DNA of 64,000 bases from an uncultured virus (IMG/VR IMGVR_UViG_2663763475_000011) (taxonomy: Duplodnaviria > Heunggongvirae > Uroviricota > Caudoviricetes), in IMG/VR virus record IMGVR_UViG_2663763475_000011, one strand, 5' to 3'. Position 1 is the first letter of the stretch. Each line of letters opens with the position of its first letter. The position numbers and the translations under genes are program-made. Below the pieces are notes generated by a model. It did not search any database. It saw only the letters and a list, made by a program, of their open reading frames with translations, and was not told the origin of the DNA. This document shows, piece by piece, positions 40,587-58,276 of the stretch.

Positions 40587-41183
40587 ATGAACTCAAATGA
40601 AAAAATCAATGAAATTCAGCGCCTGCTGCGCAACCTGATCCGTATCGGAACAGTGTCAGCCGTCAATCTAACCGACGGACTTTGCCGCGTCGATACGGGA
40701 AATAACACAACTAACTGGCTTCACTGGCTGAGCGCCCGCGCGGGTAAAACCCGTTCTTGGAATGCGCCGTCTGTGGGCGAGCAGGTGATCGTCTTATGCC
40801 TGGGCGGCGAACTCGATACCGGCTTTGTGATGCCGGGAATCTTCTCGGACGACAACCCGGCGCCGTCGGCGTCGGCGGATGCGCTGCACTGGTCATTTCC
40901 TGACGGCGCTGTGATCGAGTATGAGCCGGAAAGCGGCGCACTGACCGCAACGGGCATACAGACGGCAACCATTAAGGCGGCGGTAAAAATCCTGTTCGAT
41001 TCACCAGAGGTGGAGTGCACCAGGCTTCTGAAAACCGCGCAACTGGAAGTCACCCAGGGCGGCACGATGAAAGGAAACGTGTCGCACAGCGGCGGCAGCC
41101 TTAGCTCTAACGGTATCGTGGTCGATGCTCATCAGCATGGCGGCGTGAAGTCGGGCGACGATCTATCGGGAGGGCCGCAGTAA
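40587..41183 (+). CDS. V: Baseplate spike V
   Basis: NLIRIGTV, APSVGEQV, HQH. Confidence 0.93.
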   Translation: MNSNEKINEIQRLLRNLIRIGTVSAVNLTDGLCRVDTGNNTTNWLHWLSARAGKTRSWNAPSVGEQVIVLCLGGELDTGFVMPGIFSDDNPAPSASADALHWSFPDGAVIEYEPESGALTATGIQTATIKAAVKILFDSPEVECTRLLKTAQLEVTQGGTMKGNVSHSGGSLSSNGIVVDAHQHGGVKSGDDLSGGPQ

Positions 41184-41530
41184 TGGCAGAAAAATATATC
41201 GGTATGAACCGCGATAGCGGTAGCACCCTGACCGATCTCGATCACATCCGGCAGTCAGTGCGTGACATTCTGTTGACGCCGCTCGGCGCCAGGGTGATGC
41301 GCCGTCAGTATGGCTCGCTTCTTTCCGCACTGATTGACCAGCCGCAAAACGAGGCGCTGCGCCTGCAGATTATGTCGGCCTGCTATCTGGCGCTCCTGCA
41401 GTGGGAGCCGCGCATCAGGCTGACCGCCATCAGTTTTGAGACGGACTATAGCGGCGCAATGGTGGTCGAGCTGACGGGCAACCGCACCGACAACGCGCAG
41501 CCTCTTTCCTTAACCGTTCCTGTGAGCTGA
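41183..41530 (+). CDS. W: Baseplate protein W
   Basis: HIRQSVRDILLTP. Confidence 0.93.
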   Translation: MAEKYIGMNRDSGSTLTDLDHIRQSVRDILLTPLGARVMRRQYGSLLSALIDQPQNEALRLQIMSACYLALLQWEPRIRLTAISFETDYSGAMVVELTGNRTDNAQPLSLTVPVS

Positions 41531-41534
41531 GAAC

Positions 41535-42443
41535 ATGGCAACTATCGACCTGAGCCAGCTGCCCGCGCCTGACGTGGTGGAAGCGCTGGACTATGAATCC
41601 CTGCTGGCCGAGCGCAAGGCGACGCTGGTTTCCCTTTACCCGGCAGAACAGCAGGACGCTATCGCGCGCACGCTGGCGCTGGAGTCGGAACCTATCGTTA
41701 AGCTGCTGCAGGAAAACGCCTATCGTGAGCTGATCCTGCGCCAGCGTATCAACGAGGCGGCAAAGGCCAATATGGTGGCGTATGCGCTGGATGGCGACCT
41801 TGACCAGCTCGGCGCAAATAATGGCGTTTCTCGCCTGATTATTACCCCGGCCGACGATACGACCATTCCGCCGACGGCCGCCGTGATGGAAAGTAATGAC
41901 GATTTCCGGCTGCGCATCGCCGCCGCCTTTGAAGGGCTGAGCGTAGCCGGGCCGACCGGCGCCTATGAGTACCACGCCAAAAGCGCCGACGGCCGCGTGG
42001 CGGACGCCTCGGCCATCAGCCCGTCGCCTGCCGTCGTGACCGTGACCGTGCTCGCCCGCGAGGGCAACGGCGCCGCCGGTGACGACCTGCTGGCCGTAGT
42101 AAGCGCCGCGCTTAACGACGAGGACGTGCGCCCGGTCGCTGACCGGGTGAGCGTGCAGTCGGCGGAGATCGTGAACTATGAAATCGAAGCCGAGTTGTAT
42201 CTCTATCCGGGGCCGGAGGCAGAACCTATCCGCGCCGCCTCTGAGGCAAAGCTCGCCGCCTATGTCACCGCGCAGAAACGCCTCGGCCGGGATATTCGTT
42301 TGTCGGCGCTTTATGCCGCCATGCACGTTGAGGGCGTGCAGCGCGTCAACCTGATTAAGCCATCAGCCGACGTCGTGCTCGATAAAACGCAGGCGGCTTA
42401 CTGTACTGGCTACGTGCTGACCGTGGGAGGCTCGGATGAGTGA
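41535..42443 (+). CDS. J: Baseplate protein J
   Basis: IDLSQLPAP, LSVAGP. Confidence 0.95.
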   Translation: MATIDLSQLPAPDVVEALDYESLLAERKATLVSLYPAEQQDAIARTLALESEPIVKLLQENAYRELILRQRINEAAKANMVAYALDGDLDQLGANNGVSRLIITPADDTTIPPTAAVMESNDDFRLRIAAAFEGLSVAGPTGAYEYHAKSADGRVADASAISPSPAVVTVTVLAREGNGAAGDDLLAVVSAALNDEDVRPVADRVSVQSAEIVNYEIEAELYLYPGPEAEPIRAASEAKLAAYVTAQKRLGRDIRLSALYAAMHVEGVQRVNLIKPSADVVLDKTQAAYCTGYVLTVGGSDE

Positions 42444-43044
42444 TCGCCTGCTGCCGACCGGTTCATCAGCGCTTGAGGTTGCCGCTGCCGAGGCGCTGGC
42501 GAGCCTGGGCGCCATGAACGTGCCACTGCGTCAGCTGTGGAACCCGCAAACCTGTCCGGTTGTGCTGCTGCCTTATCTGGCGTGGGCGTGGTCGGTTGAT
42601 CGCTGGGATTCAGCCTGGAGCGAATCGACAAAGCGTAGCGTGGTTGTTGCCTCGCAGTTCGTGCACCGACACAAAGGCACAATTGGCGCTATCCGCCGTG
42701 TCGTTGAGCCTTTGGGGTATCTGATCAAGGTTATCGAGTGGTGGAAAACCAACGAGGCGCCAGGCACGTTCCGGCTAGATGTGGGCGTGTTGGATACCGG
42801 CATTACCGAAGAAATGTATAACGAGCTGGAGCGGCTGATAGCTGACGCGAAGCCTTGCAGCCGTCACCTTATCGGCCTATCCATCAATCTTGATGCGAAC
42901 GGTATTCTGCCGGTTGCCGTTGCCAGCTATAGCGGCGATGAGCTGACGATTTACCCTTACACCCCTGAACTTATCAGCGTCGGCGGGCCGGGTTATTCCG
43001 GCGCGGCCGTGCATCTTATTGACCTGACGGAAGTGAGCGCATGA
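42436..43044 (+). CDS. I: Tail protein I
   Basis: LAWAWSVDRWD. Confidence 0.95.
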   Translation: MSDRLLPTGSSALEVAAAEALASLGAMNVPLRQLWNPQTCPVVLLPYLAWAWSVDRWDSAWSESTKRSVVVASQFVHRHKGTIGAIRRVVEPLGYLIKVIEWWKTNEAPGTFRLDVGVLDTGITEEMYNELERLIADAKPCSRHLIGLSINLDANGILPVAVASYSGDELTIYPYTPELISVGGPGYSGAAVHLIDLTEVSA

Positions 43045-44036
43045 CGACTAAATATTTTGCCCTGCTGACCAATCAGGGCGCGGCTAAGCTGGCGAACGCC
43101 GCCGCACTCGGCACGAAAGTGAATATCACCTCTATGGGCGTCGGGGACGGTGGCGGCACGTTGCCGACGCCAGATCCAGCGCAGACGAAGCTCATCGCAG
43201 AGAAGCGACGCGCGCAGCTTAATTCCATGACTGTAGACGTGGCGAACAGCAGCCAGATTATCGCCGAGCAAATTATCCCCGAAAGTGAAGGAGGATTCTG
43301 GATCCGCGAGATTGGCCTGTATGACGCCGACGGCGTGCTGATTGCCGTGGCGAATTGCCCGGAAACCTACAAGCCGCAGCTGGCCGAAGGCAGCGGCAGA
43401 ACGCAAACCGTGCGCATGATTTTGATTGTGAACAGTACCAGCGCGGTAACGCTGAAGATAGACCCGGCTGTTGTGTTGGCGACCCGACAATATGTTGATA
43501 GCGCCGTGATTGAGGTGAATTCCTATGCTGACAGCCTGATGGCCGCGCATGTGAAGGCCGACAATCCGCATAGTCAGTATCCGCTGATCAAGAACGCGCT
43601 GAAGGAAATGGCTGATGCTGGTTTGCTGCCGGACGTTCTCAAAAACCTCGGTTTAGGCGAAGCCGCGAAACGCGCCGTCGGCGCTGGCGTAAACCAGATA
43701 CCGGACATGTCATTTTATGACCTGACTGTGAGCGGGGATTCCAGCTCAAGGAAGCTGACTGCGAAGTTACCCAACGGCTTTATTATCAAGGCCGTCTTAG
43801 GCTCGGCCGACCAGAACGGATGGTTTGATATTGCGTTTGATACGCCGTTTCCAACGGAGATTTTATTTGCATGGGGGGCTGAGCGTGCGCCTAACAGCAA
43901 CCTCAACCAGACCTCCACAGTGGCGGTCAATCTCAGCCTTTCGTCAGCAAAGCACATCGTCGGGCAGATGCGATCAATCACTTCGGGCGTCAGTTCTCTG
44001 GCGGGCGGTCTTTCAGCATTTGCATTAGGAAGGTAA
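43041..44036 (+). CDS. H: Tail fibre H (prophage 2)
   Basis: P2 H N-terminus, LKNLGLGEAAKR crossover region, variable tip. Confidence 0.92.
   Translation: MTTKYFALLTNQGAAKLANAAALGTKVNITSMGVGDGGGTLPTPDPAQTKLIAEKRRAQLNSMTVDVANSSQIIAEQIIPESEGGFWIREIGLYDADGVLIAVANCPETYKPQLAEGSGRTQTVRMILIVNSTSAVTLKIDPAVVLATRQYVDSAVIEVNSYADSLMAAHVKADNPHSQYPLIKNALKEMADAGLLPDVLKNLGLGEAAKRAVGAGVNQIPDMSFYDLTVSGDSSSRKLTAKLPNGFIIKAVLGSADQNGWFDIAFDTPFPTEILFAWGAERAPNSNLNQTSTVAVNLSLSSAKHIVGQMRSITSGVSSLAGGLSAFALGR
43626..43711 (+). repeat. 86-bp inverted repeat, left copy, with gix-like site at 43636-43661
   Basis: Exact reverse complement of 45143-45228; TTCTCAAAAACCTCGGTTTAGGCGAA. Confidence 0.92.
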
Positions 44037-44040
44037 CAGC

Positions 44041-44484
44041 ATGAATTACATTTTCTCAGCCGTTAACGATAAATACAGCCCTCCGGTGCTAAACGCTTTT
44101 TATCGTATCTCCGATAAAACAGATTATGAAAATGCTGGAACATGGCCGAAAAATTACACGGCAATCTCTGATGAAGTTTACGAAGAATTTAACCGGACAC
44201 CTCCTGCCGGTAAAACTGTAGGAGTATCCGACGGGCTGCCTGCATGGGTAGACATTCCGCCACCGTCACATGATGAAATGATCGCCACGGTACAGCAAAA
44301 AAAGCAGGCTCTGACAGATGCCGCCATGCTGTCAGTGAGCGTTATTCAGCTCAAACTGCAGGCCGGAAGAAAGCTCACCGAAACAGAAAGCGTAAAGCTC
44401 AATGCGGCCCTTGATTATATAGACGCAGTGGCAGCAATAAATCCTGAAGACGGGCCAGATATAGACTGGCCGGTACTTTCTTGA
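44041..44484 (+). CDS. G: Tail fibre assembly chaperone
   Basis: GTWP, PPAGK, GLPAWVDIPPP, IDWP. Confidence 0.88.
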   Translation: MNYIFSAVNDKYSPPVLNAFYRISDKTDYENAGTWPKNYTAISDEVYEEFNRTPPAGKTVGVSDGLPAWVDIPPPSHDEMIATVQQKKQALTDAAMLSVSVIQLKLQAGRKLTETESVKLNAALDYIDAVAAINPEDGPDIDWPVLS

Positions 44485-44525
44485 TTGCAGTCTGCAAGAT
44501 GGCTTGAATTTATTTCCCCTTAGAA

Positions 44526-44768
44526 TTAAGTGGTTTGCGTCTCCGGGTATTGCGTAGGCGCATTGTTATCTGTGGCGTATTCCTTCAGGTGAGCGGGATA
44601 TGCCACAGATACAGATCGCCCTGAAAAATGAAACTCTTCCGCGCCCCATATAATTGCCTGCCGTAAAAACGCCTCTACCGCAGCCGATACTTCAACAGCA
44701 TCAGCTGGGGCGTTCATGTCTTGAAGGAAAAAACCAACCGCGCCCGGACTAAAAAGCATGTTTTTCAT
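44526..44768 (-). CDS. Short tail fibre assembly-like protein
   Basis: FSPGAVGFF...PADAVEVS; directly after fibre gene. Confidence 0.7.
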   Translation of the reverse strand: MKNMLFSPGAVGFFLQDMNAPADAVEVSAAVEAFLRQAIIWGAEEFHFSGRSVSVAYPAHLKEYATDNNAPTQYPETQTT

Positions 44769-44769
44769 A

Positions 44770-45813
44770 TCAGTACCCTATTGATTCAAAATGAACGGTC
44801 GGCGCTTCGCCGAGAACGGACGTTGTGTACGCCACGGTAAATCGCGTTTTTGACACGTCGCTACCGGTATCGGTATCACGATGAATAGCCAGCGTTCGAC
44901 CTGCCATTGACCCCTGCACCGTGTAGGCCGGGCTGGCAAGCGTGGCATTCGTGGAAACCTGCGCATTCAGGTACTGCCTCGGAAAAGCGACGCGGTAATA
45001 GTGGGTGTAATAATCAACGCCGCCAATCGTCTGCTTATTAAAGTTGCCCACGGGGGCCAGCGTCGCTGTTCCAAACTGCCTGATCATACCGTTGGGTAAC
45101 GCATCCCAGCCGTTTTGCCCGTTTCGGGAAAAGGTGAAAGTGGACATGTCCGGTATCTGGTTTACGCCAGCGCCGACGGCGCGTTTCGCGGCTTCGCCTA
45201 AACCGAGGTTTTTGAGAACGTCCGGCAGTAAACCGGCATCAGCCATTTCCTTCAGGGCGTTCTTGATTAACGGATACTGATTATGCGGATTGGCAGCTGC
45301 TACATGGTCTGCCAGAAGCTGATCCGCGTACTGCCTGACCGTCAGAATGTTGTCATCAACATATTTACGGGTAGCCAGCACCACGGAGGGGTCAATCTTC
45401 AGGGTGATGGCGTCGGTGCTGTTGACGATGATGAGCATCCGCACGGTCTGCGTGCGTCCGCTGCCCTCCTGCAGGGCGGGCTTGTAGGTTTCCGGCGTAT
45501 TACAGACCGCTATCAGCGTTCCGTCGGCATCAAACAGGCCCATTTCCCGGATCCAGAATCCGCCCTCCGTTTCGGGGATCACCTGCTCGGCTATCACCTG
45601 GCTGGCGTTGGCCGGATCGATGCTCAGCGTGTTGATGGCTGCCCGGCGCACCTCGTTTACCAGCTTTGTCTGGCTGGCGTTCGGCGTGGGCAGCGTGCCG
45701 CCGCCGTCGCCCACGGCCATCTGCGTGATATTCAGCTTTGTGCCGAGCGCGGCGGCGTTGGCAATTTTGGCTGCGCCGAGGTTGGTCACGATTGCATAAA
45801 ATTTTTGTGTCAT
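44770..45813 (-). CDS. H: Tail fibre H (prophage 3)
   Basis: Full H N-terminus, same crossover region, different tip. Confidence 0.92.
   Translation of the reverse strand: MTQKFYAIVTNLGAAKIANAAALGTKLNITQMAVGDGGGTLPTPNASQTKLVNEVRRAAINTLSIDPANASQVIAEQVIPETEGGFWIREMGLFDADGTLIAVCNTPETYKPALQEGSGRTQTVRMLIIVNSTDAITLKIDPSVVLATRKYVDDNILTVRQYADQLLADHVAAANPHNQYPLIKNALKEMADAGLLPDVLKNLGLGEAAKRAVGAGVNQIPDMSTFTFSRNGQNGWDALPNGMIRQFGTATLAPVGNFNKQTIGGVDYYTHYYRVAFPRQYLNAQVSTNATLASPAYTVQGSMAGRTLAIHRDTDTGSDVSKTRFTVAYTTSVLGEAPTVHFESIGY
45143..45228 (-). repeat. 86-bp inverted repeat, right copy, with gix-like site at 45193-45218
   Basis: TTCGCCTAAACCGAGGTTTTTGAGAA on + strand. Confidence 0.92.
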
Positions 45814-46421
45814 TGTCCGACTTCCATCAGGTCGATAACGTGAACCGCCGCGCCCGCATACGTCGGGCCGCTGACGGAAAGAATTTCCGGGGTGTACGGG
45901 TAAATCGAGAGATCGTCACCGTCATAGCTCGCGGCGGCTATACGCGTTTCGCCGCTCACCTGCAGGTTGATAGACATGCCCAGCAGGTGACGGCTGCAGG
46001 GTTTGGCGTCACTGATGAGCCGCTCCAGCTCGTGATAGGTTTCTTCCGTAATGCCCTGGTCCTGCACGCCGATGTCCAGGCGAAACGTGCCGGGCGCTTC
46101 GCCGGTTTTCCACCACTCAATAACGCGGATCAGGAACCCGAACGGCTCCACCACGCGCCGGATAGCGCTGATGGTTCCCTTGTGCTGATGAATATAAAAC
46201 GCATCGAGCACCACCTGTCGCTTGACACTTTCCGCCCAGCCTTCGTCCCATCGGTCCACCGAAAACGCCCAGGCGAGATACGGCAGAAAGCTGACCGGGC
46301 AGGTTGCCGGGTTCCACAGGTCGCGCAGGGGCACGTTCAGGCCGGTAATGCCGCTGCAGGCTTCCGCCAGGCGGCGCTCCAGCGCGGACGAGCCGGACGG
46401 CATCAGGCTGCTGTTGCTCAT
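45810..46421 (-). CDS. I: Tail protein I
   Basis: LAWAFSVDRWD, AKPCSRH. Confidence 0.95.
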   Translation of the reverse strand: MSNSSLMPSGSSALERRLAEACSGITGLNVPLRDLWNPATCPVSFLPYLAWAFSVDRWDEGWAESVKRQVVLDAFYIHQHKGTISAIRRVVEPFGFLIRVIEWWKTGEAPGTFRLDIGVQDQGITEETYHELERLISDAKPCSRHLLGMSINLQVSGETRIAAASYDGDDLSIYPYTPEILSVSGPTYAGAAVHVIDLMEVGQ

Positions 46422-47332
46422 GTCAGCACCTCGTCAGCCGCCACCGAAATGTCCGTGCCGGTGCAGTTACCCGCCGCCGTACGGTCCAGGATGATGTCCG
46501 CAGCCGGTTCGATCATTTCCACCCAGTCCACGCCGGGCACGCGCAGCACCGCCCCGTAGGACTCGCGGCGCACGCTGCGGCCCAGCTTTTTCTGCTCGGT
46601 GAGGTAAGCGGCCAGCTGCGCGTTTGCCGCCTCCAGGCAGGGGCCAGCCGCCACGCCATCAAACAGGTGCAGCTTTGCCTTCACGCTGTAGTCATGAATG
46701 GTCGCGCCCTGCACGGTGACGCGGTCCGCTACGGGCCGCACCGTTTCCGCGTTCAGCGCGGTGTTCACTGTAGCCAGCAAATCCGCCGGCGCTTCGCCAT
46801 TGCCTTCGCGGCTCAGGACGGTTATCAGCACGCTGGCCGGTGACGGGCTGGTTGCCGATACGTCCTGGACGCGGCCGTCCGCGCTCTTTGCGTGAAACTC
46901 ATAGGCCGCCGTCGGCCCGGCCACGCTCAGCCCCTCAAACGCCTCCGGCACGCGCACGCGCAGGGCATCGTCGGTTTCCATCACGGCATCGACCGGCGGC
47001 ACCGCGTCAGGGTCAGCCGGGGTCACGGTCAGGCGCTGCACGTTATGGTTTGCGGCCAGCTGGTCCAGATCGCTGCCGAGCGCGTACGCCACCATGACCG
47101 CCTGCGCCGCCTCGTTGATGCGCTGGCGCAGCAGGATTTCCCGGTAGGTGCTTTCCTGTAGCGTCTTCACCATCGGATCGGACTCCAGTGCCAGCACGCG
47201 GCGCACCGCCGCCTGCTCCTCCGTCGGGTAGAGCGCGATCAGCGCCTCTTTGCGCTCGGCCAGCAGGGTTTCAAAGTCCGGCACCTCAATCACTTCAGGC
47301 GCGGGCAGCTGGGAAAGGTCAATTACTGCCAC
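46418..47332 (-). CDS. J: Baseplate protein J
   Basis: IDLSQLPAP, LSVAGP. Confidence 0.95.
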   Translation of the reverse strand: MAVIDLSQLPAPEVIEVPDFETLLAERKEALIALYPTEEQAAVRRVLALESDPMVKTLQESTYREILLRQRINEAAQAVMVAYALGSDLDQLAANHNVQRLTVTPADPDAVPPVDAVMETDDALRVRVPEAFEGLSVAGPTAAYEFHAKSADGRVQDVSATSPSPASVLITVLSREGNGEAPADLLATVNTALNAETVRPVADRVTVQGATIHDYSVKAKLHLFDGVAAGPCLEAANAQLAAYLTEQKKLGRSVRRESYGAVLRVPGVDWVEMIEPAADIILDRTAAGNCTGTDISVAADEVLT

Positions 47333-47675
47333 TGTTCACCCCCGTTGAAACAGACATGGCAACCGGCGAGCCGTCATCCCGCTGGCCGGTCAGTTCAACC
47401 ACCATTGAGCCGTCGAAGGCGCTGGTAATGTTGACGGTGTTCAGCCTGATACGCGGCTCCCAGCGGCTGAGCGCGGTATACACCGCCGCCATCACCTGCA
47501 GGCGGATCACGTCGTTTTGTGGCTGGTCAATCAGCACCGACAGCAGCGAGCCGTATTCCCGGCGCTGCAGTCGGCTGCCTTCTGGCGTCATCAGGATGTC
47601 GCGCACGCTCTGGCGGATATGGTCGATGTCGGTGATCGCCTCGCCGGTGTCGCGGTTCATGCCGAGATACATCAT
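47319..47675 (-). CDS. W: Baseplate protein W
   Basis: HIRQSVRDIL, WEPRI. Confidence 0.93.
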   Translation of the reverse strand: MMYLGMNRDTGEAITDIDHIRQSVRDILMTPEGSRLQRREYGSLLSVLIDQPQNDVIRLQVMAAVYTALSRWEPRIRLNTVNITSAFDGSMVVELTGQRDDGSPVAMSVSTGVNSGSN

Positions 47676-48250
47676 TGCGGCCCTCCTGACATATCGCTGC
47701 CGGACTTCACGCCGCCGTGCTGATGGGCATCCACCACGACGCCGTTTGAACTCATGCCGCCGCCGCCCTGCGTCACCGCACCGTTCATCACGGTTTCGCT
47801 GTTGATCCGGGTCTGGTCAGCGTCCACGCCAAACTGCTCAGTGATGAGCTGGATCCCGTCGGCCGCCTCTATGCGCATGCTTTTGATGTTCTTTATCAGC
47901 AGCTGGCCGGTTTCCGGCTCGTACTGAAACCAGCCGCCGTCCTGAAACACGGTTGTCGCGCCGTTTTCTGAGTAGTCCGGCGGCGGAAAGGCGTCGGAAT
48001 AGATGGCGGGCAGCGCAAACGCGGTTTCGAGGTTGCCGCCCAGGCTCAGCAGCACAACCTGCTCGCCGACGGTGGGTTTCCACCATGTGCGGGTGTTACC
48101 GGCGCGCGTGGTGAGCCAGTTAATCCAGTTGGTTTCGATGTCGCCCGTTTTCACCCGGCACAGCCAGTTCACCGGGTCCACCTCGGACACGGTGCCGGTG
48201 CGGATCAGGTTGGTGATAAGGCGCATGATTTCGGTCAGTTTTTCGTTCAT
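47672..48250 (-). CDS. V: Baseplate spike V
   Basis: NLIRTGTV, PTVGEQV, HQH. Confidence 0.93.
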   Translation of the reverse strand: MNEKLTEIMRLITNLIRTGTVSEVDPVNWLCRVKTGDIETNWINWLTTRAGNTRTWWKPTVGEQVVLLSLGGNLETAFALPAIYSDAFPPPDYSENGATTVFQDGGWFQYEPETGQLLIKNIKSMRIEAADGIQLITEQFGVDADQTRINSETVMNGAVTQGGGGMSSNGVVVDAHQHGGVKSGSDMSGGPQ

Positions 48251-48325: not shown

Positions 48326-48772
48326 CTACTCTGTCAGCCAGCGCAGCAGGGTGTCGCGCACTGAGCTTTCAACCTCGTCATTTACGCCCAGCAGCGGGCG
48401 CTCCGCATATTTAACCATCGTGCCGCGCCGGTTTACCCGGTCGCGAAGGCCGTAGTGATGCACGCGGGCCAGCTTCTGCACGGCAGGCGCAAAGGCTATT
48501 TCGGCCTGATCGGCGCTGGCCTGCGCCTTCAGGTATTTTGTGGTTTTGAGCTTCGCAAACATCTTGCGCCGGATCCGGCCCGGCTTCGTGCGGGCCGTGG
48601 CGCGGCGGGGTTCCCATGCGGTGCCGTCCGGGGCGCGCTGCGCTGTGATGTTCGCCTGCTGAATGCGGCGCACGTCGCGCGCGACCTCGCGCAGCATCCT
48701 TTTTCTGGCCGACGGTTCAAGCTGCGCCAGCAGCGAATCCAGCCAGGCGTCAACCTCATGCAGTTCAGCCAT
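48326..48772 (-). CDS. S: Tail completion protein S
   Basis: QRAPDGTAWEPR, ARVHHYGL. Confidence 0.92.
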   Translation of the reverse strand: MAELHEVDAWLDSLLAQLEPSARKRMLREVARDVRRIQQANITAQRAPDGTAWEPRRATARTKPGRIRRKMFAKLKTTKYLKAQASADQAEIAFAPAVQKLARVHHYGLRDRVNRRGTMVKYAERPLLGVNDEVESSVRDTLLRWLTE

Positions 48773-49196
48773 GGCGCGTCGTCCAGAACTCCTCCGGCAC
48801 GTCCGGCTCCGGCACGGCCTCAATGGTCATTTTCCCGTCCACCTCCCGCGCCAGCACCCGCTCGGTCAGCTTCAGGTTCATGCTGATGTCGCAACGGTCA
48901 TTGCCGAGGATGTCGGCCTCAAAGGTAAAGAGCTTTTCCCGCTCGCCGGGGTTCTGCAGGGCGTCCGGCTGATTTTCCCGCAGCCAGAACATTACCGGGG
49001 CCATCAGCAGGTTCTGGTCGCCGGTAAAGTCGGTAATCACCACGTTCAGGGTGTAGCGGTATTCCCATGAAATCGACGCGGCGGACGTGGCAACCAGCGC
49101 ACCGTTATCCACGAACAGGTGCAGCCGGTCGGGATTGTCCGCCACGTAGGGCACGGCTTTATTCAGGGCGTTTCGCAAGGACTGCGGCTTGTTCAT
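48765..49196 (-). CDS. R: Tail completion protein R
   Basis: MNKPQSLR, WEYRYTL, LKLTERV. Confidence 0.92.
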   Translation of the reverse strand: MNKPQSLRNALNKAVPYVADNPDRLHLFVDNGALVATSAASISWEYRYTLNVVITDFTGDQNLLMAPVMFWLRENQPDALQNPGEREKLFTFEADILGNDRCDISMNLKLTERVLAREVDGKMTIEAVPEPDVPEEFWTTRHG

Positions 49197-49443
49197 CGTC
49201 TTTTTCCTGACAGCTGATGATGGTATCGACCTTATCCGCGCACGCCGCCCAGGCGGCCTCGGTTTCATCCAGCAGGGCGTTCAGATCGCCGTTACTGCGC
49301 GGCGCGGCCGGGTCCAGCTGGCAGCGGGTGATTTTGGGACAGCCACTCACGGTAAGATTCACCTCCGGTGAGGGCCGGTCGCTGGCGCAGCCGGACAACA
49401 GGATCAGGCAGAGGGGAATCAGCCCAGCGGCGCAGGTCTTCAT
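49159..49443 (-). CDS. lysC: LysC o-spanin
   Basis: LSGC lipobox, GCPKITRC. Confidence 0.8.
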   Translation of the reverse strand: MKTCAAGLIPLCLILLSGCASDRPSPEVNLTVSGCPKITRCQLDPAAPRSNGDLNALLDETEAAWAACADKVDTIISCQEKDDEQAAVLAKRPE

Positions 49444-49726
49444 TTTCACGTTTAAGCTCCTCAATGGTGCGTTGCCGGTCGCGCAGCAGTCTGCCGTTTT
49501 GCTCGGCGGCGGCATAAAGCTGCGTCTGCGCCTGGCTGTTCGTCTGCGTAAGAATGTTCAGGGCGATCAGCTGGCCGTTCTTCTGCGACAGCTTTTTGCC
49601 CTGTTCCGCAATCGCCGCCTGCTGCGTGCTGATGGTGTGGTGCGCATTGCTGAGCCGCCATGACTGCACGCCGAGCGCGGCCAGCATGAGAAGGGCAAGC
49701 GCTGCTGCCAGCAGCACCCGCCTCAT
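49292..49726 (-). CDS. lysB: LysB i-spanin
   Basis: TM, LKRENEDLRRWADSPLP. Confidence 0.87.
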   Translation of the reverse strand: MRRVLLAAALALLMLAALGVQSWRLSNAHHTISTQQAAIAEQGKKLSQKNGQLIALNILTQTNSQAQTQLYAAAEQNGRLLRDRQRTIEELKRENEDLRRWADSPLPDPVVRLRQRPALTGGESYREWLSQNHPLPAGPGRAAQ

Positions 49727-50238
49727 GCGCCCGCGCCCCTGAGACACCACGCCATTTCACGCTGGCGGCGGTTCTCCAGCCCCTGATTAAATACGCCTTT
49801 GACGTAAACCCAGCGCGGCAGCTGTCCGCAGGCCTCACGCCATCGCCCCTGTTTCAGCAGCGCTACCATGGTCGAGCCGCAGGCGTTGCCGGTGCCGACG
49901 TTGAACGCCAGCGACACCAGCGCGTCATAAACCTGCTGCGGCATTGATACCTCCACGCAGCGCGCCAGTGCCGCCTCGACGCGTAACACGTTTGTGATGA
50001 AGTTGCCCGCCGCCTGCCGCTCGGTGATGGTTTTCCCCGGCACCACGCCGCGCGTGTTGCCGATCCCGTCGGTCCAGACGCCGGCGCTGCACTGGTACGG
50101 CTGCAGGCGGCAGCCCTCATAGTCCGCGATGAGCTTCAGCCCCTCCACGGAGGTGTGCAGCTGCTGAAAGCCGGGCAGCGTGGCGGCCAGCGCCAGTACC
50201 ACGCCCACGGCGCAGCGCTTAACGGTTTGCAGATTCAT
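49723..50238 (-). CDS. SAR endolysin
   Basis: EGCRLQPYQCSAGVWT. Confidence 0.93.
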   Translation of the reverse strand: MNLQTVKRCAVGVVLALAATLPGFQQLHTSVEGLKLIADYEGCRLQPYQCSAGVWTDGIGNTRGVVPGKTITERQAAGNFITNVLRVEAALARCVEVSMPQQVYDALVSLAFNVGTGNACGSTMVALLKQGRWREACGQLPRWVYVKGVFNQGLENRRQREMAWCLRGAGA

Positions 50239-50431
50239 ATTCCTCCCGCGTGATGCGCCCGCTTGCCAGCAACAGATAGGTTTTGCGTTTGTAGTACCAG
50301 CTGATCACCGCCATCAGAATGCCGATAAGCAGGCCAGCCACGGTTGAAATGTCTTTCAGCGACATGTCGCCCAGCCACGCCATACCCACGGCGATAAACC
50401 AGACGATCCCGGCGCGAATGCGTTCCCACAT
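50219..50431 (-). CDS. Holin
   Basis: Hydrophobic helices, SWYYKRK. Confidence 0.85.
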   Translation of the reverse strand: MWERIRAGIVWFIAVGMAWLGDMSLKDISTVAGLLIGILMAVISWYYKRKTYLLLASGRITREEYESANR

Positions 50432-50434
50432 AGT

Positions 50435-50638
50435 TCAGTCCCAAAGCTGGACGGCCTGCACGGTTGCCGTCGTCGTCACGTCCGGCAATTCCAGTTCCAG
50501 CCCGTGCGGCAGGATGGGGCCATGCTCAGACAGCCCCGGATTCGCCCGTATAACCTGCTCGGTCATGCCCTGCGTGCGCCCGTAGTGACGCCAGCAGATC
50601 GCGTCTACCGTGTCGTACTGCTGCGCACGCACTTTCAT
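50435..50638 (-). CDS. X: Tail protein X
   Basis: DTVDAICWRHYGRT...QLWD. Confidence 0.92.
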   Translation of the reverse strand: MKVRAQQYDTVDAICWRHYGRTQGMTEQVIRANPGLSEHGPILPHGLELELPDVTTTATVQAVQLWD

Positions 50639-51102
50639 CAGATAAGCTCCACGGTGCTGTGCGGCAGGCTCTGCACGCGGCTGATGGCCCAGCGCGCGTC
50701 CCGCCACAGGTCGCCGGTCGTGTCGGCCAGCTCTTCGCCGCGCTTCGCCGCAGCGGCGGTCGCGTCAAAGTCCTGATAGCGCTCGTTAAGCACCGCACGG
50801 GTCCAGCACCACACCGCGTTAACGTAGTGATGCAGTCGCACGCTCTCACCGGCCAGCTTCTCCGCTGGCACGTCGGCCAGGGTGTTAAACCCGCGCAGCT
50901 CCTGCCGCTCCCGCCATGAATAAAGCTCGGTATTGACCTCCGCCATCGCGGTGAGCACCACCTGCTTTAAGCGCTCCGGCGTAACGGTGCCGTCTACGCG
51001 CATTACGCTGCGAAACTGCGCCAGATCGACGTCCGGCCAGAACGAGTTGTTAGGGATAATTTCCGGCGTTCCCGTCGCCTTCTGCGGCGCTACGAATTCC
51101 AT
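50638..51102 (-). CDS. L: Head completion protein L
   Basis: NSFWPD, LWRDARWAI. Confidence 0.92.
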   Translation of the reverse strand: MEFVAPQKATGTPEIIPNNSFWPDVDLAQFRSVMRVDGTVTPERLKQVVLTAMAEVNTELYSWRERQELRGFNTLADVPAEKLAGESVRLHHYVNAVWCWTRAVLNERYQDFDATAAAAKRGEELADTTGDLWRDARWAISRVQSLPHSTVELI

Positions 51103-51202
51103 AGCCTTGATACTCCTGAAAAGGTTGGGCGGTGGACGGGGTTTTGATTAGGCTCAGCCTGTCGCCACCCCGTGCCGCCCCGCGCGTGGGCACGTCCGGT
51201 TA

Positions 51203-51853
51203 TCAGCTGGCGTTGCGGATTTTCCGCTCCAGCTGCTCAATGTCTTTTTTCACGCCGCAGCGCTCGTCGAGCTGCAGCGCCTGCTTAAGGTGATTCAGGG
51301 CCATCTGGGGCTGGCTGCCGGTGAGCACGTAGCCGATGGACTTGTGCAGGCGGGCGCGCGACTGGTCCGGCATATCCAGCCCGTCGGTTGCCTCCAGCGT
51401 CTGCATCAGCAGGGCAGGATCAAAGTCGCTTTCTGCCATCAGGGCATTTTTAGCGGCGTCGGCCATCTCTTCAGCCAGCAGGGTCTGCACGTTGCGGTTA
51501 AACCCCTGCGGCATAGACCAGCCGTGCTTAAGTGCATGGCGGCCAACGGCCAGCGCCCCGGCATAATCCCCGGCGTCAATGCGCCACAGCATCGCGTACA
51601 TCAGCACGTCATCCTGCTGCGCGCCGTCGGCGGCCAGCACGCCGTCTACCCAGGCGGCATATTTCGGCAGCACTTCCACCTTGATTTCGGCTTTTTTTAC
51701 GTTGGACTGAATGCCTTTGAGGCGGCGGCGGTCTTCACCCAGCTGCATTAGCATCAGCTCGTAGCCGTTCGCGTGCCGGGCAGAGCCGCCCGTACGGGCG
51801 GCCTGCTCAGCCTGAACGCGCAGGCGGTGCTGCCGTGCGGGACTCAGGCTCAT
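51203..51853 (-). CDS. M: Terminase small subunit M
   Basis: SPARQHR, WRIDAGD, GVKKDI. Confidence 0.94.
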   Translation of the reverse strand: MSLSPARQHRLRVQAEQAARTGGSARHANGYELMLMQLGEDRRRLKGIQSNVKKAEIKVEVLPKYAAWVDGVLAADGAQQDDVLMYAMLWRIDAGDYAGALAVGRHALKHGWSMPQGFNRNVQTLLAEEMADAAKNALMAESDFDPALLMQTLEATDGLDMPDQSRARLHKSIGYVLTGSQPQMALNHLKQALQLDERCGVKKDIEQLERKIRNAS

Positions 51854-51856
51854 GGT

Positions 51857-52918
51857 TTACGCTCCGGCACCGGCATCAGCTGGCGCGCTAAAGTCGCCGA
51901 TGGTGATGTTTTCGATCAGCGCGGCGCAGCGGTAGTCCTCCACCACGTACGCTTCGTTAACCGACTCGTAGTTCTCGATGCGGTCGCGCTTCGGATTGTC
52001 GATAACCGAGCGGCGGCGGGTGTCCTCCTGCCAGTAAATCGACAGGTTATCCAGACGGGTGATCAGCAGGGCGTTCGCCGGGAAGTACGGCGCGCGCACC
52101 GCCTGCAGGCCGCCCATGCGTTTCTGGCTGATGATGAGATCGGCGGCCAGCTTTTCGGTGTTGGCCTGCTCACTGTTGACCAGCGGGAAATACTTGTCAG
52201 ACAGCAGCTCACGCCCACAGATAACCACCATTTCGTCATCGTCCTGGAAGATGGGATCGATAAGCTCGTTAACCGTATCCATGACCAGCGCGTCCAGGTT
52301 GAGATATTCGCCGCCTTTGCCGACCTTCACCGATCCGGCGGTGGTTTCGCCGTCTTTAGTCGTGCTACCCATCACGTTGTCCGGGGCGTCTTCGCGCAGC
52401 TTCTGCAGCCAGCCTTTGTTGACGTCCTGCAGCAGCGGGTTCTCTGCGCGGTTAGAGGTTTTGGCACGCTTCACGCCGTTGAAGCCGATCATGATGCGGT
52501 CCAGCGCCTGGCGCTTCACGATGGCGTCGCGGATGCGGGTCTGGAAGTCCTGAAACTTCGCCCACATGTCCAGCTTCGCGTAGGTAATGGCCGTGTCGAA
52601 GTTGGTCTGCTCGCACTTGTACTCGGTGTCGGTCATCGCCGTTGGATCGGTCGGCTCGCGGTCCTTAGAGCTGGTATCGGTAGTGCCTGCAATGGTGCTG
52701 CCGACGCCGAGGCCCAGCAGCTGGCCGGACTGCTCGGATACGGCGATAACGTTAACCAGCGTCAGAAACGCGGTGCTCTGCTGGATGGTGTCCTCCAGCG
52801 TCTGCGCCACGGACGGCTCCACGCTGAACTTGCTGGAAAGCTCCGCAATCTCTACGGAATAGATGCGCGCCAGCTGGCTCAGGTAGGCGTTAAAGGCGAA
52901 ACGGGTCTGTTTTTTCAT
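51857..52918 (-). CDS. N: Major capsid protein N
   Basis: LDRIMIGFNG, LDNLSIYWQ. Confidence 0.96.
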   Translation of the reverse strand: MKKQTRFAFNAYLSQLARIYSVEIAELSSKFSVEPSVAQTLEDTIQQSTAFLTLVNVIAVSEQSGQLLGLGVGSTIAGTTDTSSKDREPTDPTAMTDTEYKCEQTNFDTAITYAKLDMWAKFQDFQTRIRDAIVKRQALDRIMIGFNGVKRAKTSNRAENPLLQDVNKGWLQKLREDAPDNVMGSTTKDGETTAGSVKVGKGGEYLNLDALVMDTVNELIDPIFQDDDEMVVICGRELLSDKYFPLVNSEQANTEKLAADLIISQKRMGGLQAVRAPYFPANALLITRLDNLSIYWQEDTRRRSVIDNPKRDRIENYESVNEAYVVEDYRCAALIENITIGDFSAPADAGAGA

Positions 52919-52933
52919 GGGGTCTACTGCTCC

Positions 52934-53788
52934 TTAGCAGTTGGTCAGGTGAGCGGCCGGCGCATCGCCGCCCGGTGCGCGCTGGCGGTAGTCGGGGCGG
53001 CTGTCTGCGCGCTCCAGCTGCTCTTTAAGTTCGTTAAAGGCTTCCTTCTGCGCCGACAGATCATCCAGCTGCGACTGCAGGCTGCTTTCCAGCTGGCTCA
53101 GGCGCTCGGCCTGCTCGCCCAGCGTCCTGTCGGTGCGGGTGCCATAGTTCTGCTGCTCGCTGGCAATCAGCTCGACCGCCTGATGCACGTCGCTGAAACG
53201 GTCATCGTCGGTCTGCTTTTGTTTGGCAAACATCGCCTTGATGCGGGTAAACAGGGCGGGCTTTTCCTCCGGCACCTCTTCCAGCTCGATCACGGTTTCG
53301 GTGGCGGCGGTAAAAAGGTTGTCCGGGTGCTGTTTGCGGTTTGCCAGCGGGTTCTTTTCCGCCGACGCGCTGAACGCCAGCATTTCGGTGCCGAGGCTCG
53401 CCGGATCGTCCGTGGCAGCCAGGCCGACCAGGTAGGCTTTGCCGGTGTCGGCAAATTTGGTGCTGACCTCCATGGAGGTGAAAAGCTTCTGGCCCTTTTT
53501 GACCAGCTCGACGAGCGAATCCGTTGGCAGGATGTCGGCGTAGAGCGCCATTTTCCCGGCCAGCGGTCCGTCGGTGATTTCCTCCGCAACCAGCGCGCTC
53601 ACCGAGCCGTAGCGGTTAAAGGTGCTGTCCGGGGCGTAAGACTTGATGTGCTCCAGATTAATCAGCGCGGTGTAGACCTGCGGGTTGTACGCGGCGGCCA
53701 TCTGCACGAGCCACTCGCGGGAAATTTCGCGCCCGTCCGTGGTGGCACCTTCCACCCCGATCCGAAAACGCTTTGCAGTTACTGTCAT
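52934..53788 (-). CDS. O: Capsid scaffold/protease O
   Basis: EGATTDGR, TDDPASLGTE. Confidence 0.96.
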   Translation of the reverse strand: MTVTAKRFRIGVEGATTDGREISREWLVQMAAAYNPQVYTALINLEHIKSYAPDSTFNRYGSVSALVAEEITDGPLAGKMALYADILPTDSLVELVKKGQKLFTSMEVSTKFADTGKAYLVGLAATDDPASLGTEMLAFSASAEKNPLANRKQHPDNLFTAATETVIELEEVPEEKPALFTRIKAMFAKQKQTDDDRFSDVHQAVELIASEQQNYGTRTDRTLGEQAERLSQLESSLQSQLDDLSAQKEAFNELKEQLERADSRPDYRQRAPGGDAPAAHLTNC

Positions 53789-53867
53789 GAGCCAGGCTCC
53801 GTTGTGAAAAATCGCTTTGAGGCTCTATGTTTGCGGCGGGAGGGGTATCGAAACAACGCGGGGCCAT

Positions 53868-53885
53868 TGTGCGGAAAACCATACA
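53868..53885. promoter_or_regulatory. Canonical Ogr site between O and P
   Basis: TGT-GCGGAAAACCAT-ACA. Confidence 0.75.
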
Positions 53886-53931
53886 ATAAGGGGCGGCGGA
53901 AAAGGGGCCGCCGGGGCCGTATTTTGGGGCC

Positions 53932-55698
53932 ATGACAACGACACTCGCCCCCGAAGACCTCGATCCCCGCAGGCAGGCCTTGCTCCTGTACTTTCAGGGA
54001 TACCGTATCGCCCGCATTGCTGAAATGCTGGGAGAGAAACCCGCAACCGTTCACAGCTGGAAGAAGCGCGACAAGTGGAACGACTACGGCCCGCTTGACC
54101 AGATGCAGCTCACTACCGCCGCGCGCTACTGTCAGCTGGTTATGAAGGAGACGAAAGAAGGGAAGGACTACAAGGAAATTGACCTGCTGGCGCGCCAGTC
54201 CGAGCGCCACGCCCGCATCGGCAAGTTCAGCAACGGCGGGAACGAGGCGGACCTTAACCCGAAGGTGGCAAACCGAAACAGCGGCCCCCGTAAGCCACCG
54301 GAAAAAAACGTATTCAGCGACGAACAGATCGAGAAGCTGCAGGAGATTTTCCACGGCTCGATGTTCGGCTATCAGCGCCAGTGGTGGGATGCGGGCAACA
54401 AGCACCGCATCCGCAACGTGCTTAAATCCCGTCAGATCGGCGCGACGTTTTATTTTGCCCGCGAGGCGCTGATCGATGCCCTGACCACCGGGCGCAACCA
54501 GATTTTTCTCTCAGCCAGCAAGGCGCAGGCGCACGTCTTCAAGCAGTACATCATGGAGTTCGCCAAAGAGGTGGATGTAGAGCTGAAAGGCGACCCGATG
54601 ACGCTCAGCAACGGCGCATGCCTGTACTTTCTCGGCACCAATGCTCGCACCGCGCAGAGCTACCACGGCAATCTCTACCTGGATGAATATTTCTGGATCC
54701 CGAAGTTTCAGGAGCTGCGCAAGGTAGCGTCCGGCATGGCCCTGCACAAAAAATGGCGGCAGACCTACTTTTCCACCCCGTCCAGCCTGACGCACAGCGC
54801 CTATCCGTTCTGGTCCGGCGCGCTCTTCAACCGTGGGCGCGCTAAGGCGGACCGCGTGGACATCGACCTGACCCACGGCAACCTGTCGCCGGGCCGCTTC
54901 TGCGATGATGGCCAGTTCCGCCAGATTGTCACGGTTGAGGACGCCGTGCGCGGCGGTTGTAACCTGTTCGACCTCGAGCAGCTGCGCCTGGAGTACAGCC
55001 CGCCGGAATATCAGAACCTGCTGATGTGCGAATTCGTGGACGACCTGGCGTCCGTGTTCCCGCTGCAGCTGCTGCAGAAGTGCATGGTAGACAGCTGGGA
55101 AGTCTGGAACGACTTCGAGGCGCTGGCGCTGCGCCCGTTCGGCTGGCGCGAAGTCTGGATCGGCTATGACCCGGCGAAGGGCACGCAGAACGGCGACAGC
55201 GCCGGATGCGTGGTTATCGCGCCGCCCGCCGTGCCGGGCGGTAAGTTCCGCATTCTGGAACGGCACCAGTGGCGGGGCATGGACTTTCGCGCGCAGGCCG
55301 AGTCCATCAAAAAGCTGACGCAGCAGTATAACGTCACCTATATCGGCATCGACTCCACGGGCGTCGGCCTCGGTGTCTATGAAAACGTGAAGATGTTTTT
55401 CCCGGCGGTGAAAGAATTTGTCTACAACCCGAACGTGAAAAACGCCCTGGTGCTGAAGGCGTACGACATCATCAGCAGCGGCCGTCTGGAGTTCGACGCC
55501 GGGCACCTCGACATCGCGCAGTCATTCATGGCCATCCGCCGCGCCACCACGGCCAGCGGCAACCGCCCGACCTACGAAGCCAGCCGCAGCGAAGAGGCAA
55601 GCCACGCCGATCTCGCCTGGGCGACGATGCACGCGCTGGCAAACGAACCGCTGCAGGGCGAAGCCGCCCACAGCCGCAACATTATGGAGATTTACTGA
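53932..55698 (+). CDS. P: Terminase ATPase subunit P
   Basis: LKSRQIGAT, LYLDEYFW. Confidence 0.96.
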   Translation: MTTTLAPEDLDPRRQALLLYFQGYRIARIAEMLGEKPATVHSWKKRDKWNDYGPLDQMQLTTAARYCQLVMKETKEGKDYKEIDLLARQSERHARIGKFSNGGNEADLNPKVANRNSGPRKPPEKNVFSDEQIEKLQEIFHGSMFGYQRQWWDAGNKHRIRNVLKSRQIGATFYFAREALIDALTTGRNQIFLSASKAQAHVFKQYIMEFAKEVDVELKGDPMTLSNGACLYFLGTNARTAQSYHGNLYLDEYFWIPKFQELRKVASGMALHKKWRQTYFSTPSSLTHSAYPFWSGALFNRGRAKADRVDIDLTHGNLSPGRFCDDGQFRQIVTVEDAVRGGCNLFDLEQLRLEYSPPEYQNLLMCEFVDDLASVFPLQLLQKCMVDSWEVWNDFEALALRPFGWREVWIGYDPAKGTQNGDSAGCVVIAPPAVPGGKFRILERHQWRGMDFRAQAESIKKLTQQYNVTYIGIDSTGVGLGVYENVKMFFPAVKEFVYNPNVKNALVLKAYDIISSGRLEFDAGHLDIAQSFMAIRRATTASGNRPTYEASRSEEASHADLAWATMHALANEPLQGEAAHSRNIMEIY

Positions 55699-56732
55699 TG
55701 AGCAAACGCAGGAACCGTACGCGCACCCAGCCTGTGCAGCAGCAGATGACCGGCGGCGCGGCGGCAGAAGCTTTTACCTTCGGCGACCCGGTGCCGGTAC
55801 TGGACCGCCGCGAGCTGCTCGACTACGTAGAGTGCGTCATAAACGATCGCTGGTATGAACCGCCGGTGAGCTTTGACGGGCTGGCGCGCACGTTCCGCGC
55901 GGCCGTGCATCACAGCTCGCCGATCAACGTGAAGCGCAACATCCTGACCAGCTCGTTTATCCCGCACCCGTTACTGAGCCAGCAGGCTTTTAGCCGGTTT
56001 GTGCAGGACTATCTGGTGTTCGGCAATACGTATCTGGAGAAGCGTACCAACCGCCTCGGCGGGGTGATTGGGCTGGAGCCTGCCCTGGCGAAGTTTACGC
56101 GGCGCGGAACCGATCTCGACACCTACTGGTTTGTGCAGTACGGCCTGAACACGCAACCTTATAAGTTCACGCCGGGCAACGTGTTCCACCTGATGGAGCC
56201 GGATCTGAATCAGGAGGTTTACGGCCTGCCGGAATATCTTTCGGCCATCCCGTCTACGCTGCTGAACGAGTCGGCGACGCTGTTCCGCCGCAAGTATTAC
56301 CTCAACGGCAGCCACGCGGGTTACATCATGTACGTTACTGACCCCGCGCAGAATCAGGAAGATGTGGACGCCATGCGCAAAGCCATGAAAAGCACGAAGG
56401 GCCCTGGCAATTTCCGCAACCTGTTCATGTATTCGCCGAGCGGTAAAAAGGACGGTATTCAGATCATCCCGCTGTCAGAGGTAGCGGCTAAAGACGAGTT
56501 TTTGAATATCAAGAATGTGAGCCGGGATGACATGCTGGCCGCGCACAGGGTGCCGCCGCAGATGATGGGCATTATCCCGAACAACACCGGCGGGTTCGGT
56601 GACGTGGAGAAAGCCAGCAAAGTGTTTGTGCGAAACGAACTGATGCCGTTGCAAAAGCGATTTGAAGAACTGAACAGCTGGCTGGGTGAAGAGGTAGTTC
56701 GTTTTGAACCTTATAATCTAGAGGCTGGTTAA
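55698..56732 (+). CDS. Q: Portal protein Q
   Basis: AFTFGDP, AHRVPPQMMG. Confidence 0.96.
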   Translation: MSKRRNRTRTQPVQQQMTGGAAAEAFTFGDPVPVLDRRELLDYVECVINDRWYEPPVSFDGLARTFRAAVHHSSPINVKRNILTSSFIPHPLLSQQAFSRFVQDYLVFGNTYLEKRTNRLGGVIGLEPALAKFTRRGTDLDTYWFVQYGLNTQPYKFTPGNVFHLMEPDLNQEVYGLPEYLSAIPSTLLNESATLFRRKYYLNGSHAGYIMYVTDPAQNQEDVDAMRKAMKSTKGPGNFRNLFMYSPSGKKDGIQIIPLSEVAAKDEFLNIKNVSRDDMLAAHRVPPQMMGIIPNNTGGFGDVEKASKVFVRNELMPLQKRFEELNSWLGEEVVRFEPYNLEAG

Positions 56733-56737
56733 ATTTC

Positions 56738-56773
56738 ATGCACAGATTATTGATATGCAAATAATCTGTGCAT
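56738..56773. terminator. 14-bp stem hairpin between convergent portal and cargo operon
   Basis: ATGCACAGATTATT...AATAATCTGTGCAT. Confidence 0.7.
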
Positions 56774-56778
56774 CATTT

Positions 56779-57615: not shown

Positions 57616-57625
57616 ATACGACTAT

Positions 57626-58276
57626 TTACTCCTTAAATCCTGACCCAGGGATAGAAACCGAAGACATCCAGCCATCGGTTGCCACTCCTTTACTACCTAC
57701 CAGATTTGCTTTGGTTCCAGCTTCTTTTAGAGTGCGAGCCTCTTCAATCAAGACATTAACTGATTGCTGCCAGTCATCGCCACGTTTTATCAAATCTATG
57801 ATAGAAAGACCTTCAAACGCTTTCATCTTCGACATCAGTTTAGCGTTTTCAATACCAGCCTCATTAAAGCGGTCAGAGACTCTGCTCAATTCAATGATAT
57901 AACTTGCTTTTTCTATGTCATCGGGTTGGCTTTCACCTGATAACCATTTATAAAGAGCCTGCCGAGTAATGCCTAAATCTTTTGCTAGTTCCGACATGGA
58001 CGGAGCAAGGGTATCTCGAACATTTTTCAGATGGTCAGATACAGTCCTAACATCTACCAATTCGTTCTCAATATCATTATCAAATTCAGCTTCAGATTTC
58101 ATCAATCCAAACTGAACCTTAGATTGCACGTAGCCACGCCACTGGTTCACATCTTTAACTGAGAAATTGGAACCGGTGCTGCTCAAAAATAAAGAGGATG
58201 CAACCATTAATGCTCCAGCGACTGTTGGAGCAAACCCGGGCGTTTCATAGAAACTTCCAGTCATAGATTGACGCAT
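57626..58276 (-). CDS. HTH-containing cargo protein (second gene)
   Basis: MSELAKDLGITRQALYKW; RBS GGAGGTG before ATG at 58276. Confidence 0.8.
   Translation of the reverse strand: MRQSMTGSFYETPGFAPTVAGALMVASSLFLSSTGSNFSVKDVNQWRGYVQSKVQFGLMKSEAEFDNDIENELVDVRTVSDHLKNVRDTLAPSMSELAKDLGITRQALYKWLSGESQPDDIEKASYIIELSRVSDRFNEAGIENAKLMSKMKAFEGLSIIDLIKRGDDWQQSVNVLIEEARTLKEAGTKANLVGSKGVATDGWMSSVSIPGSGFKE

Follow-up and report, generated by a model that had tools for sequence, protein, structure and literature searches.

A Gin-type tail-fiber cassette between two opposed prophages, best explained by a switch acting between neighboring lysogens

In the G segment of phage Mu, two inverted 26-base-pair (bp) cores, gixL and gixR, lie within the fiber gene, where its constant part meets the variable one, and enclose two convergent sets of tip and chaperone genes, S-U and S'-U'. 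The invertase gene gin follows the right site, and one of the two tips is silent. The Fis-dependent enhancer of such switches works in cis and is located inside the 5' part of the invertase gene. Here we analyze a stretch of 64,000 nucleotides (nt) from an uncultured virus of the Caudoviricetes (IMG/VR record IMGVR_UViG_2663763475_000011; the whole stretch is called the window below), in which a cassette of this kind lies between two P2/186-like prophages of opposite orientation, A and B. The window resembles Mu in having 26-bp inverted cores at the constant/variable boundary of the fiber gene and two convergent tip and chaperone sets, and its core is identical to Mu gix at 21 of 26 positions (counted by eye). 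In contrast to Mu, where the invertase adjoins the segment, none is found nearby, and the place after the right site is occupied by the constant part of a second phage's fiber gene (H), with both tips on full N-termini. This architecture departs from the well-known switch and, as far as sequence can tell, is best explained as a by-product of the switch acting between two neighboring prophages.

Three other described systems share parts of this picture. Prophage Qin encodes PinQ, which inverts the P segment of e14 in trans (PMC12529663). This parallels our proposal in that the invertase of one prophage acts on the sites of another; as set out in the accessible part of that report, what is flipped is the other prophage's own 1.8-kilobase (kb) segment, with no site-to-site recombination between prophages. 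A P2-like prophage of enteropathogenic Escherichia coli has three inverted repeats and four variants (PMC4272514) and, like the scenario proposed here, combines more than two crossover sites with nested inversions and several C-termini for one fiber gene. In the accessible text of that source its sites all fall within one prophage, over ~2 kb, and the 700-kb 'mega-inversion' also described there involves 1-kb repeats, with no link drawn to an invertase. The third system is that of the 'Bone' isolates of sequence type 131, where tail-fiber segment inversions occur together with a 'translocation' among three prophages that have a common 70-bp repeat (bioRxiv 10.1101/2022.05.07.487787). As proposed for the window, a short repeat is the place of exchange between homologous H/S genes of different resident prophages, and two of these prophages have invertases; the accessible portion of that preprint describes changed fiber sequences between isolates and not prophages physically joined via one cassette. 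No description of two prophages joined via one invertible cassette was found in the literature searched, subscription-only literature lying outside that search.

Comparison of the window with itself bore out the inverted copies that the initial annotation had reported in the two H genes: the two 86-bp arms are exact reverse complements of each other (coordinates in Table 1). Extended without gaps, the arms reach 172 nt at 91% identity. The identity stops sharply on the inner side and drops on the outer side to ~73%, a value typical for the two homologous H genes. The imperfect ~64 bp noted further outward correspond to a ~65-nt linker preceding gix, in which the A and B copies differ at 6 positions. 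Each arm holds the 26-nt core TTCTCAAAAACCTCGGTTTAGGCGAA, of which there are exactly two copies in the 64 kb; a scan allowing up to 3 mismatches found only these two exact copies in the window and no match in 100 shuffles (0/100). The Mu gix letters that the initial annotation had given when it pointed out the likeness are correct and are found at both annotated G-segment boundaries of NC_000929, and the central CCTCGG is identical between Mu gix and the window core. Moreover, the genome G015, from the same genus, has a canonical switch with a core identical to the left one. On the strength of these matches we assign the crossover sites in the window to the gix type.

The cassette measures ~1.58 kb between the cores, and two full-length H genes, of 331 and 347 amino acids (aa), converge on it. 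Its order is gix, tip 1, chaperone 1 and then, on the opposite strand, chaperone 2, tip 2 and gix. The N-terminal domain PF12571 is complete in both H proteins (E = 4e-63 and 3e-66), and each H gene comes after the V-W-J-I genes of its own prophage; the earlier claim that complete N-termini are fused to both tips in two separate phages is therefore upheld. With the gix cores in frame at the constant/variable boundary of both H genes and two opposed tip and chaperone sets between them, the segment is, by its layout, a canonical Gin-type cassette with two tips and two chaperones. The chaperone position for tip 2 is taken by an 80-aa open reading frame (ORF) with no Pfam, PHROG or PADLOC family match; its Atlas match (0.90, to a cluster of tail-fiber assembly fragments) is a weak lead only. 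Homologs of 80 aa stand at the equivalent place in contig G060:C18 and in locus L035 (both described below), and since the ORF is conserved in the former, we read it as an intact gene rather than a truncated remnant; it may be a small, undescribed tail-fiber assembly factor.

An invertase is indeed lacking in the window, as initially stated: a Pfam scan of its 62 ORFs detected no resolvase/invertase domain (PF00239), and tblastn searches of the window with Mu Gin and an invertase from the genus as queries gave a best E of 1.6. Neither the invertase gene nor the enhancer located in such genes adjoins the cassette. When the cassette is flipped in silico between the central dinucleotides, both H frames stay open and the lengths of 331 and 347 aa are exchanged. 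The proposed exchange of tips by a single flip is thus compatible with the sequence, and live reciprocal tip-swapping is, on paper, structurally possible.

To which phage the cassette belongs can be read from relatives that hold only one of the partners. From 24 listed public runs, four were compared (X15, X16, X19 and X1), all of them Logan contigs of other strains. X15 and X16 have 0 differences to the window over A (38000-43672) and over the cassette interior (43682-45172), and tip 2 of the B fiber gene is 100% identical to A's cassette in both. Their depth is ~0 over 45218 to ~49200, i.e., B is absent. Beyond 45218 the X15/X16 contig continues for more than 1.6 kb in sequence unlike the window, and 24 of 30 of these letters (counted by eye) agree with the spacer that separates gixR from the invertase gene in the genus genome G074.

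Among 80 related IMG/VR loci, the two more than 90% identical (L034 and L035) were examined. L035 contains the entire cassette from core to core (1583 bp, 94%), adjoined by an invertase, FI and FII; the invertase has 85% aa identity to that of G015 and 69% to Mu Gin. On its other side are A-like V-W-J-I-H genes at 85% identity, with the cassette reversed relative to the window such that H is 347 aa. Both cassette orientations thus occur across relatives, an A-type H carrying tip 1 in the window but tip 2 in L035. The same plan is seen in G015, where an H gene with the identical core is followed by G, G', tip', a second core, an invertase (200 aa, Resolvase and HTH_7 domains, PF00239 at 3.6e-49), FI and FII; in G074, with two cores ~2.1 kb apart; and in an element of genome G001 that resembles element C of the window, with a site pair and an invertase beside it. 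All four have an identical or near-identical core and the order V-W-J-I-H-gix-cassette-gix, as does the window, and their invertases are 69-71% identical to Mu Gin. They differ from it after the right site, where they have the invertase and then FI-FII, whereas the window has the reversed prophage B. G060:C18 is a 1,790-bp contig with the core at both ends, encoding a tip and chaperone and then an 80-aa ORF and a tip, the latter 89% identical to the right half of the window cassette. In none of the genus genomes searched was A itself found at >85% identity.

Because X15 and X16 carry A with the full cassette and no B, and because L035 has the cassette beside an invertase, we identify the cassette in the window as prophage A's own, and the cassette with its invertase as a property of A-type phages. 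The initial view of one cassette shared by two prophages stands insofar as both H genes use it; joint evolution of the cassette does not, given X15, X16 and L035. Two other constructions were set aside. A cassette made of an A half and a B half, joined at 44485-44525, was rejected, as X15 and X16 have the whole interior as one 1491-nt contig without B. A contig of X1 in which 43662 is joined to 44536 was rejected as a variant of the window locus; it comes from a separate related phage, ~89% identical, with a different first half of the cassette.

The other partner is equally well represented by relatives. Over 9.7 kb that reach to the repeat's inner end, L034 is 97% identical to window B, with the constant part of H likewise at 97%. 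Beyond the repeat it continues with a fixed tip-1-like sequence and chaperone (G) at 94-96%, then FI, FII, T, U and D; it has a single core and no invertase. The right end of L034 is 99% identical to a B-like prophage in G001, and judged by these two genomes, B-type phages are otherwise complete. The G001 prophage is bounded by a 49-bp core at 166887 and 198178, the right copy lying inside an intact methionine transfer RNA gene (tRNA-Met). The left attachment site (attL) of A is the same as both of these ends, which indicates that A and B-type phages use one tRNA-Met site, and with one common attachment (att) site, tandem lysogens there have like orientation. In G001 the + strand carries both the C-like and the B-like element; the window has B turned around with respect to C. 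A third B-like phage, in X19, is 95-99% identical and matches the window from 45202 outward, diverging further in. The last 65 nt of the window's B fiber gene before the core show many differences to L034 and fall inside the stretch matched by X19 (3 differences in 332 nt).

The ~65-nt linkers before gix (45229-45293 and 43561-43625) form a mosaic boundary in B-type H genes, in which the L034, G001 and window/X19 alleles are mutually divergent. Recent gene conversion as the source of the 91% identity in the outer 64 bp was rejected, in that the copies differ at 6 positions and the B allele is also present in X19, which is poor in A sequence.

We consider it probable, on balance, that A and B are former tandem lysogens and that A's right gix recombined with the one in B's H gene, inverting ~30 kb. 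A and B would have started in tandem and in like orientation at one tRNA-Met attachment site. In such an A-B array, A's right gix and B's gix would be inverted repeats ~30 kb apart, enclosing A's invertase and FI-ogr arm, the middle att site, and the arm of B from int to H. A single inversion of this block would produce A's left arm, the cassette, a hybrid gix and B's left arm reversed, exactly as in the window. The reciprocal junction is predicted ~11 kb past the right end of the window and should read FI of A reversed, invertase of A reversed, gix, B's original tip, and FI of B. The exchange was probably carried out by A's serine invertase, with cleavage at the central TC of the core; the alternative would be RecA, using the up to 76 bp that both arms have in common. 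Once inverted, A and B would be unable to excise as units until the inversion was reversed. Both H genes would remain intact, each with a tip and chaperone, and a 1.58-kb flip would trade tips between two late operons.

The position of the join agrees with such a history. Up to 45218, where the core ends on its outer side, the window is the same as canonical A (X15, X16); from 45202 outward it matches X19's B-like phage. If the B parent was X19-like, the exchange would fall within the 17 bp of 45202-45218, an interval that includes the central dinucleotide and thus fits an invertase cut. The initial annotation had proposed inter-prophage recombination at the gix sites through either a large inversion or a deletion; recombination between the prophages continues to offer the best explanation of the junction, and of the two routes we prefer inversion because of the att-site evidence, i.e., one common site with fixed orientation.

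Several points weigh against the inversion or its details. None of the 24 listed runs contains the whole stretch; the best share of sampled words, 0.64, comprises A and the cassette only. A 140-nt probe of the hybrid junction gave 0 exact matches in genome_contigs and 0 in metagenome_contigs, and the 45 H genes present in 38 of 75 genus genomes include 0 convergent pairs within 5 kb. (Seven of the 75 have two H genes, the closest pair being 44.5 kb apart on one strand.) Gin-type invertases normally act over a few kb with the enhancer in cis, and 30 kb would be unusual. The 17-bp interval hinges on an X19-like parent; an L034-like parent would leave 76 bp common to the arms, and homologous and site-specific exchange would then be indistinguishable. 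Finally, the attachment of B itself is deduced from G001 and L034, its int and att lying beyond the window.

A real junction would make this a natural instance of a host-range invertase recombining the sites of two different resident prophages. Both would be scrambled and interlocked in a single step, leaving neither with a contiguous genome or a usable att pair, and a receptor-binding tip of one phage would at the same time pass to the other. Such an event would provide a concrete route for the movement of tail-fiber modules between phages, a way for polylysogens to become trapped or domesticated, and an origin of tens-of-kb inversions without the need for long homology.

The most serious competitor, although we think it unlikely, is an assembly artifact or a rare variant. 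Here the culture would have held canonical A, with its cassette in both orientations, and an intact B; the assembler would have left the cassette via the 76-86-bp repeat into B's H, or would have caught a rare recombinant subpopulation. The repeat is common to the H genes of A and B and to the invertase side of A's cassette, and in an assembly graph with k < 86 the exit from the cassette towards B's H would use each single-copy node once. The hybrid junction's lack of matches, in both contig collections and among the genus H genes, also counts on this side. However, the flank past the cassette belongs to a different phage, at 71-76% identity, and is more than 18 kb long. The right flank is not an inverted copy of A's own fiber shaft, as a mirror-flank artifact would have it; the two flanks are phages known separately. 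The contig is also correct through longer repeats. A and B have 3 kb in common at 95%, with exact runs of 138, 131, 107 and 102 bp, and the contig passes through both copies; that it resolves A/B repeats longer than 86 bp counts for a real junction. In addition, single reads of 150 nt are long enough to cross an 86-bp repeat, and an X19-like B parent would have only 17 bp in common with A's right arm, too short to mislead an assembler. Should the join nonetheless be an assembly error, it would be a warning that invertible cassettes common to several prophages can make assemblers join them wrongly.

A reading that we hold to be doubtful is that the three to four gix sites of two tandem prophages constitute one reversible inversion network run by the resident invertase. 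In one state both prophages would be intact; in the other, that of the window, ~30 kb would be inverted and the prophages interlocked and unable to excise. In this second state both tips of one cassette would be expressed at once from two late operons, and small flips would trade host-range tips. If true, this would amount to a population-level switch coupling prophage lock-in with exchange of receptor-binding modules.

Less probable again is a deletion, in which A (+) and B (-) would have been convergent at two nearby sites and gix recombination between direct repeats would have removed both right arms and the chromosome between them. This would yield an identical junction in one step, and it agrees with the lack of any invertase or FI-ogr arm of A or B within the window. 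Convergent P2-like prophages do occur, in G068 and G021, where the H genes are on opposite strands, but these are more than 300 kb apart. With A at a tRNA-Met attL and B-type phages on the same 49-bp core in fixed orientation, convergence would require two close, opposed tRNA-Met genes. Moreover, invertases of the Gin family disfavor deletion between direct sites, and losing whatever DNA lay between two separate sites would probably carry a cost. These points make deletion improbable and return us to inversion between tandem lysogens as the preferred history.

Very improbable is a common switch that selection maintains for two prophages, each flip exchanging host range. In its favor, neither H gene nor either chaperone ORF is disrupted, and the frames stay open when the cassette is flipped in silico. 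Against it, the arrangement is seen once (with no counterpart among the genus H genes or the junction searches described above), the canonical A of X15 and X16 matches the cassette and A flank at 100%, a sign that the event was very recent, and A and B are without sheath, tube, tape measure and ogr in cis, with no invertase adjoining.

The wider setting of the cassette is summarized in Table 1. Pfam matches on the 62 ORFs delineate three P2/186-like elements in the window, of which A and B fit the order int-cI-cII-...-A, followed by Q P O N M L, lysis, R S V W J I H G. Within the window, A and B have no invertase, no attR and no right arm (FI, FII, E, T, U, D, ogr); the right arm is present in C, L034 and L035. 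The 49-bp att core has a single copy in the window, and no tRNA gene was found there.

Table 1. Positions of the elements, tail-fiber genes and crossover sites in the window.
Feature	Position	Strand	Content or basis
Left gix-like crossover core	43636..43661	+	pattern scan; G015 identity; 21/26 vs Mu gix
Right gix-like core, putative recombinant site linking A's cassette and B	45193..45218	-	pattern scan; run alignments
Left arm of 86-bp repeat	43626..43711		10 nt of H constant part + 26-nt core + 50 nt of cassette interior
Right arm of 86-bp repeat	45143..45228		self-comparison
Tail-fiber gene H of A, 331 aa, constant part + tip 1	43041..44036	+	PF12571 residues 1-150; Gp53-like_C tip
Tail-fiber assembly gene for tip 1 (G), 147 aa	44041..44484	+	PF02413 1.9e-20; phrog_188
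80-aa ORF in chaperone position for tip 2, intact	44526..44768	-	position; homologs in G060:C18, L035
Tail-fiber gene H of B, 347 aa, B constant part + tip 2 of A's cassette	44770..45813	-	PF12571
Baseplate genes V, W, J, I of A	40587..43044	+	Phage_base_V/Phage_spike, GPW_gp25, Baseplate_J, Tail_P2_I
Baseplate genes I, J, W, V of B	45810..48250	-	Pfam; 95% identical to G001 B-like prophage
Rest of B left arm: S, R, lysis, L, M, N, O, P, Q, cargo, gpA, dam	48326..64000, runs off window	-	Pfam; 96% G001 B-like, 97% L034
attL core of A, 49-bp 3' tRNA-Met fragment	19003..19051		identity to both ends of G001 B-like prophage
Integrase of A, left end of A	19123..20151	-	PF24624 + PF00589
Element A	attL 19003 to gene G end 44484	+	int, cI, cII, dam, gpA, Q, P, O, N, M, L, lysis, R, S, 843-aa cargo gene, V, W, J, I, H, G
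Element B	44526 to beyond 64000	-	A's gene order from dam/gpA to V, W, J, I, H (347 aa), then 80-aa ORF
Element C	1 to ~17.6 kb	+	cI, gpA, R, V, W, J, I, 473-aa H, G, FI, FII, T, U, D

Element C (1-17637) has DNA homology to A's lysis region and is without the Q-P-O-N-M-L head genes and without S. This headless layout is also found in G001, at 91% identity, and its retention there suggests that C is a maintained tailocin-like element. In G001 the element includes a gix pair together with an invertase at 71% identity to Gin; in the window it has a fixed 473-aa H and no invertase.

Prophage A carries additional cargo. Between S and V (37922-40453, - strand) is an 843-aa helicase-like gene whose product matches the PADLOC candidate defense family PDC-S28 (E = 0, 1034 bits); B has no insert at the equivalent spot. 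The cargo region between gpA and Q encodes a 686-aa P-loop ATPase (27317-29377, + strand) with weak AAA/nSTAND matches and a partial PADLOC match to PDC-M36A (2e-13). Between C and attL, 17664-19002 is an interval of ~1.4 kb with a DUF3916 gene (18134-18727); the equivalent interval in G001 (G001:C23, 154506-166886) is ~12 kb long and has only a 248-bp piece, at 92%, in common with the window.

The dam-gpA region is 95% identical between A (22966-25992) and B (60387-63413), against ~70% elsewhere, and accounts for the exact runs of up to 138 bp. This likeness reflects either recent exchange or a conserved replication module, and it is a second recombination substrate for A and B.

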